From Octopus vulgaris (taxonomy: Eukaryota): DNA of 64,000 nt. A program made the translations under genes and the position numbers. Shown one piece after another: positions 12,897 through 54,315 of the stretch (positions are counted from its first letter, which is position 1; every line of letters begins with the position of its first letter). The DNA is taken from contig OX597818.1 in assembly GCA_951406725.2 (NCBI GenBank), forward strand, positions 101,556,001-101,620,000, in the 5' to 3' direction. Under the pieces are notes generated by a model. That model worked only from the letters and a program-made list of their open reading frames with translations. It made no database searches and was not told the DNA's origin.

Positions 12897-14434
12897 TGGA
12901 GAGGGAGATAATTAAGTTATTGAGAAATGTTTTGTGGGTGAAATCCTGATGCCCTGTATCGCAAACATAGCAGTCAGAAGAGATTTAGCACGGAAATAAG
13001 GTGAGGGAGTGGAAATGTCACATGAGACAAGCAAGAAAGAAAAGTTAAAGGACAGGATATCTGTGAAAAACTTCCTTTTAAATTTATATCAAAGATCAGG
13101 ATTTTAAATATGCTCATCAAAAACACAAATAGCACAATAGAAAAAAAATCAATTCAGTTGGATTTCAGCTTTAAATTTGGTCGTGCACACTGCAAAAACT
13201 AACGTAATTCGCACAGAAGTTTTATCTAGAGTGTGTGTATGTATGTGTGTGTGTCTAAAAGGAAGTATTTTTTATGGCATTCTTTCGTTTGAAGACGCAA
13301 AGTTGTCAACTCGACATATATGGAATCATATGATTGATCGTTTGTTTCCATAAAAATTCTTTTAATTCTTTATGCTTTGGAGAGAGTAGAAATTGAAAGA
13401 GAGGATAAAGTAAAAAAGCGACATTTGCTTTGAAATGAGAGGAGAAAGTAAAGCATGTACTGCATATGAAATGAACGTGTGTCAGTGCGAGAAAGAGAGA
13501 GGGAGTGTGTGTGTTTGTGAGAGTGAGTGAGTGAGTGAGTGAGAAGGAAGGAGCGTGCTGTGATGTATTAAGTTTTTTGTATGTATTTGTAAGTGTCTCT
13601 CTCTTCCTCTTTTTTTCACACATGCACATGCACACACACATTATCTTTCATATATATTTACATACATAAGTGGAGGTAAAGAATACGCATACCACCCATT
13701 TTTGGCATAAACCTAAATGTAATCACCGGGTGTGCATAATGTTTACTTTCGTCTATAAATGCATATGTATACATCTGTTTTTGTACTTGAGGGAGATCGG
13801 GAAACCGAATGTATTTCCCCATAACATATACAGAAATGGATATATTTTAATGCAATTTTGGGTGTTGTGGCTTATTTTAATACAGTATTTATGTGTACAT
13901 TTTCATAAATGTTTGTTCGAGTAGAAGTCTAATCATGCGTGAAACATCGGACGACAATGAAACTTTAGAAAGAAATTTAAATGTTGTCACAAAATTACCT
14001 CAAAATTGTGCGACCCGCGTAGTTGCCGAGGTTTTGTTAGTTGCAAAAGTGAGTTGTTGAGTGAAAGACATAGTTTATTTAGTAGACAGTTAATAAGCAG
14101 TGGCTGTTTCGCATTGGCTATGATTCGTTAAGACTTTCAAAGTTGTCAACGAACTGTCATCCAGATCAGATGTTTTGTTCGCTAATTTCTGTATCTATTT
14201 ATTTACCTTTGTATGAAAGTGAAAGAGAGAAAGGGAAAATATGTCTGAACGTGTATATGAAATGGATGTGTGTGTGTGTTTGTGTGTGTAAAAGAGAGAG
14301 AGAGAGAGAGAGGGAGAGAACCATCTTCAAATACATGAGAACACACATCTTCACTCACTCAGGCACTATCTATCTATCTATCTATTTATCTATCTATCAA
14401 TCTACCTATATATATATATATATTTTTATATAGG

Positions 14435-14485
14435 AGCTTCTACAGGACTAGAACTGTTTCATTCAAATGAAATCATCAGGAAGCT
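14435..14485 (-). ncRNA. Type I hammerhead ribozyme motif (left IR copy)
   Basis: Reverse complement is identical to 16601-16651. Confidence 0.65.
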
Positions 14486-14619
14486 TGGCGTCAAGAATAG
14501 TTTTGGCATTTATACATTTAGGCAGATTTGATGGGGTGGTGGTGGGGGACCCCACCCACAAAAACCCCACCCACCCCCACCTTTCCTTCAGCACCCCCAA
14601 TTACCTTCTCTCCTACGAC

Positions 14620-16410: not shown

Positions 16411-16600
16411 AATAGTCTTCCTATTTACCTAAAACTCTCTTCTATTATTCTATTTATTCATTTATCTACTTTATCACTGATTCTTTTGACCACTACCCTA
16501 AGAAAGACAGTTTGTGCCCTGCCTACCCCAAAAAAGTCCCCCACCACCACCCCATCAAATCTGCCTAAATGTATAAATGCCAAAACTATTCTTGACGCCA

Positions 16601-16651
16601 AGCTTCCTGATGATTTCATTTGAATGAAACAGTTCTAGTCCTGTAGAAGCT
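16601..16651 (+). ncRNA. Type I hammerhead ribozyme motif (right IR copy)
   Basis: AGCTTC-CTGATGA-tTTCatttGAAt-GAAA-CAG-ttctagtc-CTG-TA-GAAGCT. Stem I is 6 bp, the CUGAUGA/GAAA core is intact, stem III is ACAG/CUGU and the triplet is GUA (predicted cut after 16645). Stem II is weak, with U-U at its base. Confidence 0.65.
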
Positions 16652-16743
16652 CCTTCTATAAAATAAATTAATTTACTCTGCATGTATTGAGTGGTTAACC
16701 CCGACTCAACCCGGGTCCTACATATATATATATATATATATAC

Positions 16744-18274: not shown

Positions 18275-18294
18275 TTGTATATGTGTTTGTTTAC

Positions 18295-18344
<50 letters not shown>

Positions 18345-18364
18345 GTAAACAAACACATATACAA
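18275..18364. repeat. Perfect 90-bp palindrome centred on (AT)19
   Basis: ttgtatatgtgtttgtttacgtgtgc-(AT)19-gcacacgtaaacaaacacatatacaa; the 26-bp flanks are exact reverse complements. Confidence 0.95.
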
Positions 18365-19672: not shown

Positions 19673-19710
<38 letters not shown>

Positions 19711-19713
<3 letters not shown>

Positions 19714-19870
19714 TGTGAAATATTCACGGATCCCTTTAATTTATATGAATATAAGTGTAAAACCATATATCAATATTAACATATATATAACAGTATCAAT
19801 ATTAATATTTATATATGGTTTCAAACTTATATTGTAATACGCTAGCAGGACCCGTGAATATTTCACAGTA
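19711..19870. repeat. 23-bp inverted repeat with 114-bp spacer (MITE-like)
   Basis: tgctgtgaaatattcacggatcc (19711-19733) versus ggacccgtgaatatttcacagta (19848-19870), 21/23 match. Confidence 0.75.
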
Positions 19871-20814
19871 TGAACCGATTGTGTTGTCCCTAAAAGCCTG
19901 AAATGTAGTCTGTGTTGTGTCTGTATCAAAGATCTGATATTCATTGAAAACTGAAGTAATTTGGAATACAAGGCTATGGGTCAGAGTCAATAGGCAATTC
20001 TATTTGCCATATACCTTTCAATCTAATACTTCTTTGGAGAGTATGCACTTCGTGTAAGTTCTCCCTTTTCTTTTCCCACGATTATCACTGATCAGATAAT
20101 TTACGAATCTGTCGCTGACTAGATAATTTACGAATCTTTCAGAGTACAACATATAGCTAACTATGGTCAAATAGAGTTTCAGGCAAATGTTTTCTCTACT
20201 GTTTATTAGTAGTCATTGTATATGACAGGCGAACCGGAAAATTGTTTCTTTTTGAAGTTAATGTCAAGTATGGGATGCGCATGCGTTAAGTGATATGAAA
20301 ATAAAACTTTAAGTTAAAGTAAAAATTTCTTTTCATTATGCACTCACTGTCGCCGCCTGCACCACCACCACCACCATCCCACCACCACCATCAACATATC
20401 CCTCACACTCTTTCTGCCATTCTTCCTTCTTTCTTTCTCTGTCTCTCCTCTCTCTGTCTCTCTTTTTCTCTGTCTCTCTCCCCACACTTTCTGCCTTTCT
20501 TTAATCCCAACATTATAACATCACCCCATAGTTAAAGTATATTTTTAACACTCCTCCTCTAGCTTCAACTAACATTTTTTTAATCACGTAATACACATTA
20601 CATTCCTCCTAAAATATGTCATGGACGCTTCTTCCTCCGTCTTTTTTCTCTCTCTCTCTTTTCCTTTCTCTCTCTTTCTGCCTCACTCTTCGCATTCGTC
20701 TCTTTTTCTCTTTCCCTCTTTTCTTTCTGGCACTTTTTCTCTTATCACGTTAAATCGTAAACAACGGGTAAGAAACGTCGCGAAAAGAAATATAGAAATA
20801 TTTGTCTTTATATA

Positions 20815-21614: not shown

Positions 21615-22118
21615 CCACCTGTGTCCTAGCGTGTAGAAAAATTAGTCAATAGACGATATATTATTCATATAAATACAGTGTACATTTAAGCATATAAGAG
21701 GTATCCGTCATAGGATTCCTTTCACGCTAGAAGGAACAGGTAAAGTTCAAACCACAATTATGGATGAAAACTCGAAGGGATTGAAAAATGAAAACACTTC
21801 AAAAAATTTTATTTTATTTGCTAAAAAAGTCAGAAACGTGATCGTGAGTGAACGTGTATATGTGTATGTGTATCTGTGTGTCTGTGTAAGCGGGTATATG
21901 TGTGTGTGTACATGTCTATTGGTACGTATGTGTGTGTATTTGTGTGTGAGAGCATCATAGCATTTTAGCATCATAATTTTGAAATATCTATAAAGCCATC
22001 AAACGCTTATTTTTATTTTCTATGTTTATTAGTTATTAGTGTTTCTTAATGTGTTTTGCTAAAATAGCTGTTTCGTTTCAGATATCATCAAAGAAAAAGG
22101 TAATTAAAATTCATTAAA

Positions 22119-22975
22119 ATGACAGATCTATCGGACTTTCAAATACGTCAAACTGCCGGTGCTTGTGTGGCAGGCGCTAGCGTTACGAAAACAGCCGAAA
22201 TATTTGGTGCATCAAGGAGTACTGTCTCGAAAGTAATGTCACTCTTTGAGAGAGAGGGTAAAACTCCTCGTCGAAGCAGAACTGCGGAAGAAAACCGAAA
22301 CTTTCAGAAAGGGACTATTAGATTCTTACGCGAATTGTTAGAAAGGATAACAAAACTACAGCTCCCAAAATTACTGCAGAGATTAAAGACCATCTCGAGA
22401 ACCCAGATTACACAAAGACCGTCCACCGGGAGATGCACAAAGCCAGATTTCGCAGGAGTGTTGCAATCAGAAACTAATACTTTTAAATACAAACGTTGCA
22501 AAGCGTTTAGACGGGATTGAAAACCTACAGAATTGGTCCGTAGAGCAGTGGAAGAATGTTATTTTCTCGGACGAGGCAGTCTTCGCCTTGTTTCCGACCA
22601 CCTGGAGATTGTCAAAAGAAGAATTTGATCCAGACTGCCTTCTTACAACTATTAAACATACAGGAGAATCTATGATGATCTGGGGGGGGCTATATCTTGG
22701 AAATCCGCCGGCCCAATGGTTTCTCTTCATGGCAGAATTAATAGTCAATATTATTTAAGCATGCTATTTGATCAAATTTACCCTATGTTTGCGGAACTGT
22801 TTCCGGAAGGAAACGTAACGTTTCAGGATGATAATGCACCACCTCACACAGCTATAGTTGTTACTGAATGGCACCAGGAACATTCTGGTGAAGTTGAACA
22901 TCTTCTCTGTCCACCACAGTCCCCAAATCTCAATATTATTAAACTCCTCTGGTAAATTTTAGAAAAACAAGCTTG
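22119..22975 (+). mobile_element. Tc1-like transposase pseudogene (DD34E type)
   Basis: MTDLSDFQIRQTAGACVAGASVTKTAEIFGASRSTVSKVM (HTH); WKNVIFSDEA; FQDDNAPPHTA; CPPQSPNLNIIKLLW. Frameshifted and truncated at a microsatellite. Confidence 0.9.
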
Positions 22976-23038: not shown

Positions 23039-24370
<1,332 letters not shown>

Positions 24371-24508: not shown

Positions 24509-24562
<54 letters not shown>

Positions 24563-24563
24563 C

Positions 24564-24811
24564 GTATAGGAAAGAATGGAGCTGAACGAAGATTTAACAA
24601 AATTCCTGTATTTTATTTTCGACATATGTTTCGAAGTCTGCAAATCCTAATTCCGAATGAATAAGGAGTCCATTATGCAGCTGAAGAGAAAGATGCATAA
24701 TGGACTCCTTATTCATTCGGAATTGGGGACTTTGCAGACTTCGAAACATATGTCGAAAATAAAATAAAGGAATTTTGTTAAATCTTCGTTCAGCTCCATT
24801 CTTTCCTATAC
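24564..24811. repeat. Near-perfect fold-back (arms 24564-24679 and 24694-24811, 14-nt loop)
   Basis: gtataggaaagaatggagctgaacgaagatttaacaaaattcc...cattatgca / tgcataatg...ggaattttgttaaatcttcgttcagctccattctttcctatac. Only a few mismatches or indels; the loop is gctgaagagaaaga. Confidence 0.95.
24681..24760 (+). ncRNA. Hammerhead core with palindromic minimal stem III; stem I 5' strand lost
   Basis: CTGAAGA-GAAagaTGCA...TGCAgacTTC-GAAAC-ATAT-GTC-gaaaat. Core intact, G-C at the base of stem II, GUC triplet, ACATATGT palindrome as in minimal PLE hammerheads. Confidence 0.6.
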
Positions 24812-24960
24812 TTAATATATCAAACTTCAAATTTCCGCACTAAGGCACGGATTTTATGCCCTTTGGTCGTAACTTCAACCGTGCTTTTTCTGTTGTGAGT
24901 TTGCTACCCAGATATCGGTTATCTTTCGAATTATCCGTAATAAGATAATTCATTTGTCTA

Positions 24961-25005
<45 letters not shown>

Positions 25006-25849: not shown

Positions 25850-26740
25850 CTAGAAACAATTAACGTACTTGACCCTGATAGAAAGGATCACAAAAGTACA
25901 GCTCCCAAAATTACTGCACAGCTTAAAGACGACCTCCAGGAACCAGTTTCCGCAGAAACTATTTGCCAGGAGCTGGACTAAGCCAGGTTTAACCTGAAGT
26001 CTGCTATTAACATCTACTTTCAAATACAAACGTTGCAAAGCGTTTAGAGTGGATGGAAAACCTACAGAATTGGTCTGTAGAGCAGAGGAAGAATGCTATA
26101 TTCTTGGACGAGTCATCCTGTACTTTATTTCCAACCACCGACCGAGTATACGTTTGGAGGCATCCAAAAGAAGCATTTGAACCAGACTGCCTTCTATCTA
26201 CTGTTAAACCTAGAGAAGATTCTGTAATGATCTGGGGGCGGGTGCTATATCTTGGGAATCCGCCGGCTCAATGCTTTCCCTTCATGGCAAAATTAATAGT
26301 CCAGCCTACTTAAGCATGATATTTGAGCAAATTCATCCTATGATTTCGGAACTGTTACCGGAGTGAAGCGCAATCTTTCAGGATGATAATGCACCAATTC
26401 ACTACAATTGCTACTGAATGGCACAAGGAACATTCTAGTCAAGTTGAAAATCTTATCTGGCCACCTCAGTCCACTGATCTCAATATTATTGAACATTTAT
26501 GGTACATTTCAGAAAAATAAGTAAAGATTCGATATCCTCCACCACCATCACTGCAAGAACTGGAGACTGTTTTTGCTGAAGAATGGATGAAAATTTCTTT
26601 GAAAACAATTCAATCTTTGAATGAGTCCCTACCTCGTAGAATTCAAGCTATAATTATTGCCAAAGACAGTCCTATCCCATATTAAAATAAAATGTGCTTG
26701 AAATTTTAAGATGTTTCCATTGTTTTATCCAACACCTGTA
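25850..26740 (+). mobile_element. Tc1-like transposon 3' two-thirds with right TIR (same family as 22119-22975)
   Basis: NWSVEQRKNAIFLDESS...VWRHPKEAFEPDCLLSTVK, FQDDNAPIH, WPPQSTDLNIIEHLW. Ends gtttccattgttttatccaacacctgta (CAGGTGTTGG-type TIR plus TA). The DNA is homologous to 22330-22970. Confidence 0.9.
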
Positions 26741-44077: not shown

Positions 44078-44318
44078 CACACATACCTACATATATATAC
44101 ATACATACACACACATATATATATATATATACACACATACCTACATATATATACATACATACACACACTCACACATATATATACATATATAACTACATAT
44201 ATATATGTATATATATACATACATACACACACACACACATATGTATACATATATAACTACATACATATATGTATATATGTATATATACATATATATAGGT
44301 CTGTGTGTGTGTATGTTG

Positions 44319-44617
44319 TATAAAAGATTGTGGGTAATGCCAAAACAACGCGAAGTAAATGCAAGGTAAATCACAAGGAAACAAATATGTGAATTAAGGT
44401 CGACTTAACTGTGTATCCAATATTTCGGGAGTTATTACCTCATTTTCAAGAAATTGACGAACATTCACATCGGCAACATTCTTCAAATTCTTGAAAAGGG
44501 GGTCATAACCCGAAATACTAAATATAGTTCAGTCTACATAAATTCACATACCTGTTTTCTTGTGATTTACCTTGCATTTACTTCAAATTTTTTGGGCCTT
44601 ACCCATGATCTTTTATA
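44319..44617. repeat. Diverged fold-back (~138-bp arms, ~25-bp spacer)
   Basis: tataaaagattgtgggtaa...gaagtaaatgcaaggtaaatcacaag...tatttcggg...ttttcaagaa versus ttcttgaaaa...cccgaaata...cttgtgatttaccttgcatttacttc...ttacccatgatcttttata. Confidence 0.9.
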
Positions 44618-45415
44618 AAATATACTCTACACAATGCTTCGCAGTAATTATTCCATTATATATATATATATATATATATATACATACGTCTTTTCAGATA
44701 AGAACATGTATACTTGTTAATATACAATATCACAATTCATTTTTCACTTTTAACTTTGAATGATGAAAAGGTGTTTCTTCAACTGCTGTCTTAGCTGCAT
44801 TGCACTGTGGTTTTGTCTAGAGTTCCTCAGACAGAATTCTCGCAGCTCCTGATGCAGTCTGTGATATTTTGGGACAAGATCATCGATGGAGAGACTAGCT
44901 GGGTATACGAGGAGACCGTTTTGGTCATTCTAATTTCTGCAAGACGTGTGAACAATGTCATATTTATTGTCGTCATCAGGCGCAGAAGTACTTCAGTAAC
45001 AGTATTGGGGGAAATGGTATAAATACATAGACATAAATCTATACATACATGCATACATATACGCATGTATGTATAGATAGATGTATAGAGAGAGAGAGAG
45101 AGAGGAAGTGAGAGACACACTGACACACAGAGATACACACACGCATGAAATAAACCATACATACATAAGTGTGTCAATGCATGTGCTAAAGAAAGCGAAA
45201 GGGAAAAGAAATATAGCAACGCTATTACATATAAATCTCTATGATATGCACAGTAGATACCTTTATAAATGTAAAACTCTAATCCTTATTATATAATTAG
45301 TGGAAAGATTTGTACTAAAATGCCCATATTTCGCCTGCATATTAGTCTTCTTATTGTATGTTAATTCATTGATTTCTCAGCGCCAAATATATTTCTGATG
45401 TCTCTCCGTTTCTTC

Positions 45416-53160: not shown

Positions 53161-54315
<1,155 letters not shown>

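Follow-up and report, generated by a model that had tools for sequence, protein, structure and literature searches.

Insertions of Penelope-like elements (PLEs) follow a recognizable layout. According to the accessible part of PMC8557442, they typically carry an adjacent inverted, 5'-truncated copy and a tail of 30–40 bp at one end, and they are biased towards microsatellites. In Pen2a_Av there is a 15-bp overlap between the inverted and the direct pLTR, and palindromes at inverted PLE junctions were interpreted as self-priming as early as 2013 (PMC3846280, available sections). The hammerhead ribozymes of these elements have a palindromic helix III and a G10.1-C11.1 pair, and their motifs occur in pairs on opposite strands, 100–700 bp apart (PMC4209133, available sections). 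In one PLE, the protein both nicks and extends the two strands, RT initiates at two sites bounding the tail, and hammerhead mutants insert normally in vitro; cleavage is not required (PMC11167929, available sections). The formation of inverted pLTRs and the role of the hammerhead are both presented as open questions in the accessible parts of PMC8557442 and PMC11167929.

The locus that we describe here lies in a 64-kb stretch of Octopus vulgaris DNA (the window), which is AT-rich and laden with microsatellites. It consists of two shortened ends of a hammerhead-bearing repeat family, placed head to head inside (TA)n. Its parts, in order, are the following.

24513–24560, no strand: left (TA)n tract, likely the target site; no TSD can be distinguished, any such repeat being hidden in (TA)n
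24564–24679, minus strand: inverted, 5'-truncated, tail-less element end, equal to 24694–24811
24680–24682, plus strand: head-to-head junction, a G that fits neither copy followed by a shared CT
24681–24687, plus strand: hammerhead core box CTGAAGA (C3-A9), start of the direct copy
24688–24742, plus strand: candidate for a long imperfect helix II, with a G10.1-C11.1 closing pair
24743–24754, plus strand: GAAA box, palindromic helix III (ACATATGT) and GTC triplet, with the predicted cut after 24754
24755–24760, plus strand: 3' strand of stem I, GAAAAT, whose partner is absent here and present in sister copies
24761–24820, plus strand: 3' portion of the pLTR-like end, containing AATAAA motifs
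24813–24820, plus strand: internal TA-rich motif that marks the tail-less 3' end
24821–24962, plus strand: one-sided tail of about 142–151 nt, family sequence with weak predicted structure
24963–25002, no strand: right (TA)n tract

The arms (116 nt on the left, 118 nt on the right) are identical in 114 of 118 aligned columns, and their limits move out to 24555 and 24820 once the AT-rich outer bases are counted. The near-perfect arms of about 116 bp and the (TA)n on either side, both reported in the first-pass annotation, are thus real. Folded as RNA, the hairpin is predicted to reach −196.2 kcal/mol (z −34.5), a value equalled by none of 200 shuffles; if transcribed, the locus would yield a dsRNA of more than 110 bp, the duplex put forward in the first-pass annotation as a candidate substrate of ADAR or Dicer. 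At one of the four differing columns, in the run at 24725–24726, the left arm has A like the family and the right arm has G. The inverted copy is devoid of CTGAAGA, retains GAAA, ACATATGT and GTC, and stops in the TA tract. Between the arms lies a 14-nt loop, 24680–24693 (GCTGAAGAGAAAGA), which had been described as exactly the catalytic box. That was too strong, as the loop is made up of a foreign G, the CTGAAGA box and the initial 6 nt of helix II, whereas the GAAA box and the cleavage triplet are inside the arms. The loop is simply the additional 5' part of the longer arm. By chance, 0.003 occurrences of CTGANGA would be expected in a 14-nt loop, an estimate made post hoc. The junction G at 24680 matches neither copy, sister copies having C directly before 24681, and the CT at 24681–24682 is common to both copies and constitutes a 2-nt microhomology. 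Self-comparison of the window revealed no second copy of the element end, and the list of open reading frames contained none of at least 90 aa overlapping 24586–24962.

Read on the plus strand, the core at 24681–24754 bears the signature of a type I hammerhead (CUGANGA, GAAA, NUH and G10.1-C11.1), the boxes being CTGAAGA at 24681–24687, GAAA at 24743–24746, the self-complementary ACATATGT at 24746–24753 and GTC at 24752–24754. In helix II, seven of the first ten positions pair in register and the C that is common in the family at 24738 would give an eighth, yet the region as a whole folds no better than expected (z −0.63; 41 of 200 shuffles fold equally well). Helix III is predicted to form a homodimer (−8.4 kcal/mol) and no monomer hairpin. 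Stem I is the part that has been lost: only two of the six bases upstream of the core can pair with GAAAAT, in contrast to six of six in sister copies, which bears out the earlier remark that the inverted copy displaced the 5' strand of this stem. Because stem I is lost and the remainder would be locked in the long duplex, the ribozyme of this locus is predicted to be dead. A search of Rfam gave no hammerhead model at the locus at E values up to 10, nor was one present among the 150 of 202 matches listed; matches to miRNA-type hairpins were obtained, under their gathering scores.

Parts of 24681–24962 are contained in 20 of 24 listed public runs, which carry four organism labels and come from 11 studies, the best of them having a share of 0.48. 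We aligned contigs of four runs (X1, X3, X6 and X10) to 24640–24974 at 80% likeness and obtained 886, 749, 204 and 84 family contigs in the four (1923 in all), as befits a dispersed repeat family. None of the listed runs is on record as RNA, although X10 is perhaps one. The results given below derive from the 24 of 138 loose-end rows and the 32 of 1939 pieces that were listed, so that further junctions may exist among the others, and contig assemblies, which lose rare variants, are weak evidence on end pile-ups.

Upstream of the core, all three listed loose-end rows before 24681 (four contigs of X3, one of X6 and one of X10) end in GGATTTTC; among the rows listed for X1 there is none before 24681. 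Sister copies thus have ATTTTC directly before CTGAAGA, which makes a 6-bp stem I with GAAAAT at 24755–24760 (chance about 0.0009), just as the first-pass annotation had anticipated in proposing a TTTTC-like partner in non-inverted copies. Since the partner of stem I is present in the sister copies, the hammerhead reading appears sound for the repeat family, as far as its sequence can tell. As regards variation among family alleles, a sizeable share have A at the cleavage position 24754 (a GTA triplet), and 5-nt length variants are found at 24756–24760, adjoining stem I. In three runs the median length of the loose ends of sister contigs upstream of C3 is 13 nt, although one X3 consensus reaches at least 30 nt; this hints, weakly, at a boundary shared by the family some 13 nt before C3.

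Downstream, contigs with 14–15 letters differing from the window bridge the arm and the tail (24759–24930 in X3, 24789–24903 in X1), and the tail region therefore belongs to the element. The 150 bp that had been called unique is single in the window, but it is repeat-family sequence. Other loose ends, after 24820 (nine contigs of X1) and after 24805 (24 contigs of X3), enter TA-rich sequence; the family therefore has a tail-less end at the place where the left arm stops. Two minority alleles of the family, T24716 and A24738, are carried by both arms, and therefore the arms stem from one source lineage. As to structure, the predicted fold of the tail is modest (z −2.38), and when 20 single alleles listed for it, all unphased, were set against the predicted pairs, 4 kept, 10 broke and 6 missed them; a conserved tail fold is unsupported by the family alleles. 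The summed contig depth, which is not a copy number, drops steeply upstream of about 24748. We set aside the reading of this drop as truncation at the cut site, for variant subfamilies fail to align there.

Outside these runs, exact family patterns gave 0 matches in collections of genome contigs and viral contigs. The lone metagenome match turned out to be a chance 22-mer inside an ORF and no true family copy; the ORF reads like what we assume to be a prokaryotic tryptophanyl-tRNA synthetase. We found no description of the repeat family in the literature searched, in which few subscription journals were covered.

Taken together, the inverted truncated copy, the tail on one side only, the type I hammerhead with its palindromic helix III and the TA target make up the PLE layout, and the locus is thus very probably a PLE-type element end, in line with the initial proposal of a pLTR-type end that carries a hammerhead and an inverted arm. 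The structure and the self-priming mechanism alike are already published; it is the repeat family itself that is new, as a member of the PLE type. With EN+ PLEs, as far as the accessible parts of PMC8557442 and PMC3846280 describe them, it shares a 5'-truncated copy joined to a head-to-head inverted copy with a short junction offset, a tail confined to one end, a target that is AT-rich or a microsatellite, a hammerhead close to the 3' end and dispersed copies. It differs from them in its tail, about 142–151 nt versus the 30–40 reported, and in having no ORF at the locus. The combination of a TA target and a hammerhead suggests the Neptune clade.

The ribozyme itself agrees with metazoan PLE type I hammerheads (PMC4209133, available sections) in CUGANGA, GAAA, GUC and G10.1-C11.1, in the palindromic helix III with its predicted need for a dimer, and in the 6-bp helix I of sister copies. 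Two differences from that set are a helix II region of 55 nt, imperfect, instead of 6–8 bp, and no extra base between positions 9 and 10.1. The locus adds a PLE-type family end that is unusual in its 142–151 nt tail, its long helix II and its junction at C3.

Among individual systems, Poseidon of Anolis carolinensis (PAc) is similar in having two 3' ends that bound the tail, a target rich in AT and a hammerhead for which cutting is dispensable, but the PAc tail lies inside the start of an ORF, unlike the tail described here (PMC11167929, available sections). Naiad elements share the (TA)n target, inverted copies and a tail, and some have half cores 35–50 nt apart; in contrast to our family they are without a canonical hammerhead and possess an N-terminal EN ORF, for which there is no counterpart at the locus (PMC8557442, available sections). 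Three of four family motifs had no match in the accessible supplementary sequences of that paper, where line breaks could hide matches; the match to the fourth, only 9 nt long, is unrelated sequence. By eye, no likeness is apparent in the visible end of Naiad_Obim. Animal non-LTR retrozymes (PMC7229834; bioRxiv 10.64898/2026.07.22.740005; both in available sections) are likewise non-coding, PLE-related and equipped with a type I hammerhead, but they form head-to-tail tandems, whereas here there is one head-to-head pair; a retrozyme-style direct repeat of the unit does not occur in the window.

The window holds a second, older head-to-head fold-back (44304–44461 and 44479–44633, 127 of 159 columns matching, 17-nt spacer) among TA/CA repeats. 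Each of its arms begins 12 nt upstream of a core that resembles a hammerhead of the U3-A8 variant (TTGAAAA, a short helix II and GAAA), and on its right side about 25 extra nt precede (TA)n. There is no Rfam match at 44304–44633, which is likely to represent another PLE-type family. These two are the only hammerhead-like cores in the 64 kb, as compared with a mean of 0.28 and a maximum of 2 in 40 shuffles, by a core descriptor that was written after both loci had been seen. Stem I of at least 3 bp is absent at both. Two loci do not establish clustering; at most they hint at a preference of junctions for the motif's 5' edge. The clustering of inversion points at the ribozyme that had been put forward at the outset found no echo in the 1923 family contigs either: neither a strand-changing joint nor an end pile-up is among those listed, no joint listed for the four runs is of the kind that goes back, and no piece listed spans the fold-back junction.

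How might the locus have formed? The account that we place first, with moderate confidence that applies to the PLE identity and the route taken together, is a PLE-type insertion in which priming took place twice, on opposite strands of the target. An RT/GIY-YIG protein of a PLE, supplied in trans, would have nicked both strands of the TA tract. One cDNA would have been primed from the tail end (24962), and the other from the internal tail-less start (about 24811–24820). At the 5' edge of the hammerhead, probably close to where the copied RNA had its 5' end, the two cDNAs would have stopped no more than 13 nt apart, and they could then have been joined via the microhomology CT at 24681–24682. 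Several observations argue for this twin-priming route within a PLE: the stem I partner seen in sister copies of three of the four runs, the contigs that bridge arm and tail, the other copies that reach TA-rich sequence at 24805–24820, the place at which the left arm ends too, the sharing of minority alleles T24716 and A24738 between the arms, and the second fold-back with both arms starting 12 nt before its core. It also agrees with the published layout, two-strand nicking and palindromic helix III (PMC8557442, PMC11167929 and PMC4209133, available sections). On the other side, no RT/GIY-YIG ORF could be linked to the family and none is found at the locus, the tail is longer than reported (PMC8557442, available sections), the long helix II does no better than shuffles, Rfam shows no hammerhead, and no listed contig spans the junction or changes strand. 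Moreover, two cDNAs that end 13 nt apart require a common stop, whereas a fold-back yields a short loop by itself, and the tail-less copies may themselves be inverted arms, in which case they do not discriminate between the routes.

Second in rank, and a possible though clearly less probable route, comes the folding back of a single cDNA of the same element, the route of the first-pass annotation stripped of any part for cleavage. Here the cDNA would fold at C3 and self-prime its second strand, with resolution at the internal TA-rich motif. The final sequence would be the same as after twin priming, and the short loops (14 nt here and 17 nt in the second fold-back) are accounted for more simply. 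The CT/AG microhomology and the minority alleles shared by the arms fit as well, the alleles being compatible with twin priming and fold-back alike, and the published reading of junction palindromes, together with the 15-bp pLTR overlap, provides a precedent (PMC3846280, available sections). What speaks against such a fold-back is the primer, 2 bp beside a mismatch, at a cDNA 3' end that is predicted to be unpaired, as well as the left arm, which halts at the family-wide end instead of copying the tail. The self-priming considered by the first-pass annotation is possible, but there would be only the 2 bp of CT/AG to prime from, and no stable hairpin is predicted.

It is unlikely, although conceivable, that the position of the junction is a later product. 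Palindromes undergo centre deletion, and the arms could originally have begun about 12 nt upstream of the core, a deletion at the palindrome centre having subsequently shifted the junction to C3; the match between junction and catalytic box would then be incidental. The second fold-back, which retains 12 nt upstream on both arms, is in keeping with this, and so, as a weak hint, are the sister loose ends, whose median length upstream of C3 is 13 nt in three of the runs. Yet a longer allele of the locus was not seen, and the junction is spanned by no listed contig.

A more specific version of the twin-priming route, which we regard as rather improbable, gives the hammerhead the role of a clasp and not of a cutter. 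Two element RNAs might dimerise via the palindromic helix III, and a dimeric RT might use the two start sites to copy one RNA on each of the nicked strands of the target, with both cDNAs then terminating jointly at the ribozyme's 5' edge. If true, this would explain why head-to-head junctions lie at the core or just before it in both motifs of the window.

There is very little to recommend the idea that the locus is simply a TA-targeting MITE or fold-back DNA transposon. The long inverted arms, the TA flanks and the missing ORF would suit one, but the arms are not terminal, the tail outside them is family sequence, and sister copies run on non-inverted upstream of CTGAAGA, where they complete stem I. 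The symmetric arms by which the first-pass annotation would have recognized a MITE are therefore not what was found, given the tail beyond the arms and the non-inverted sister copies at 24681.

Hardly any weight can be given to the hammerhead having made, by self-cleavage, the RNA end at which the inversion took place. In its favour are the junction at C3 and the complete motif of sister copies. However, cleavage did not set the junction, because the cut site lies 74 nt downstream of it and is uncut in both arms, and the notion of a ribozyme-defined RNA end must be abandoned as far as cleavage is concerned. No end pile-up is listed at 24754/24755, contigs being weak for such a test, and hammerhead mutants show no change in insertion in vitro (PMC11167929, available sections). 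Equally implausible is an assembly artefact from a fold-back read. Among the contigs listed for the four runs none crosses the junction, which speaks in its favour, but 4 of the 118 columns differ between the arms, with the family A at 24725–24726 in the left arm and G in the right, and the best run has only 0.48 of the words, so none of the runs need carry a copy of the locus.

A single locus cannot settle the origin of inverted pLTRs, but this one does show that cleavage did not determine its junction. Should junctions prove to be concentrated genome-wide at the motif's 5' edge, the family would lend itself naturally, as a data set, to distinguishing fold-back from twin priming and to testing a role of the ribozyme other than cutting.

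The window contains several other repeats. At 19710–19871 an inverted repeat (each arm some 73 nt long, 75% identity overall) lies beside (TA)n and has no hammerhead-like core, and a perfect 90-nt palindrome (18275–18364) has a (TA)n tract at its centre. Two segments, 16536–16663 and 14424–14550, form an inverted duplicate of 128 nt with 98% identity, about 2 kb apart, and constitute a young repeat pair. The fold-back is flanked by decayed relics of a Tc1/mariner-like transposase, 22104–22971 and 25876–26521, which are 78% alike over 654 nt; the former gives Pfam matches to HTH_23/HTH_28 and a weak one to DDE_3. Between TA tracts there is also a segment of about 800 bp (23090–23890) that starts with ACTAG and has the look of a non-autonomous Helitron-like insertion. 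Finally, an open frame of 189 aa (53590–54159) follows (AAT)n; it has no Pfam match, its best PDB match is an R2 protein (E 0.1), and it reads like what we take to be a zinc knuckle and the restriction-like endonuclease end of an R4/Dong-type LINE.
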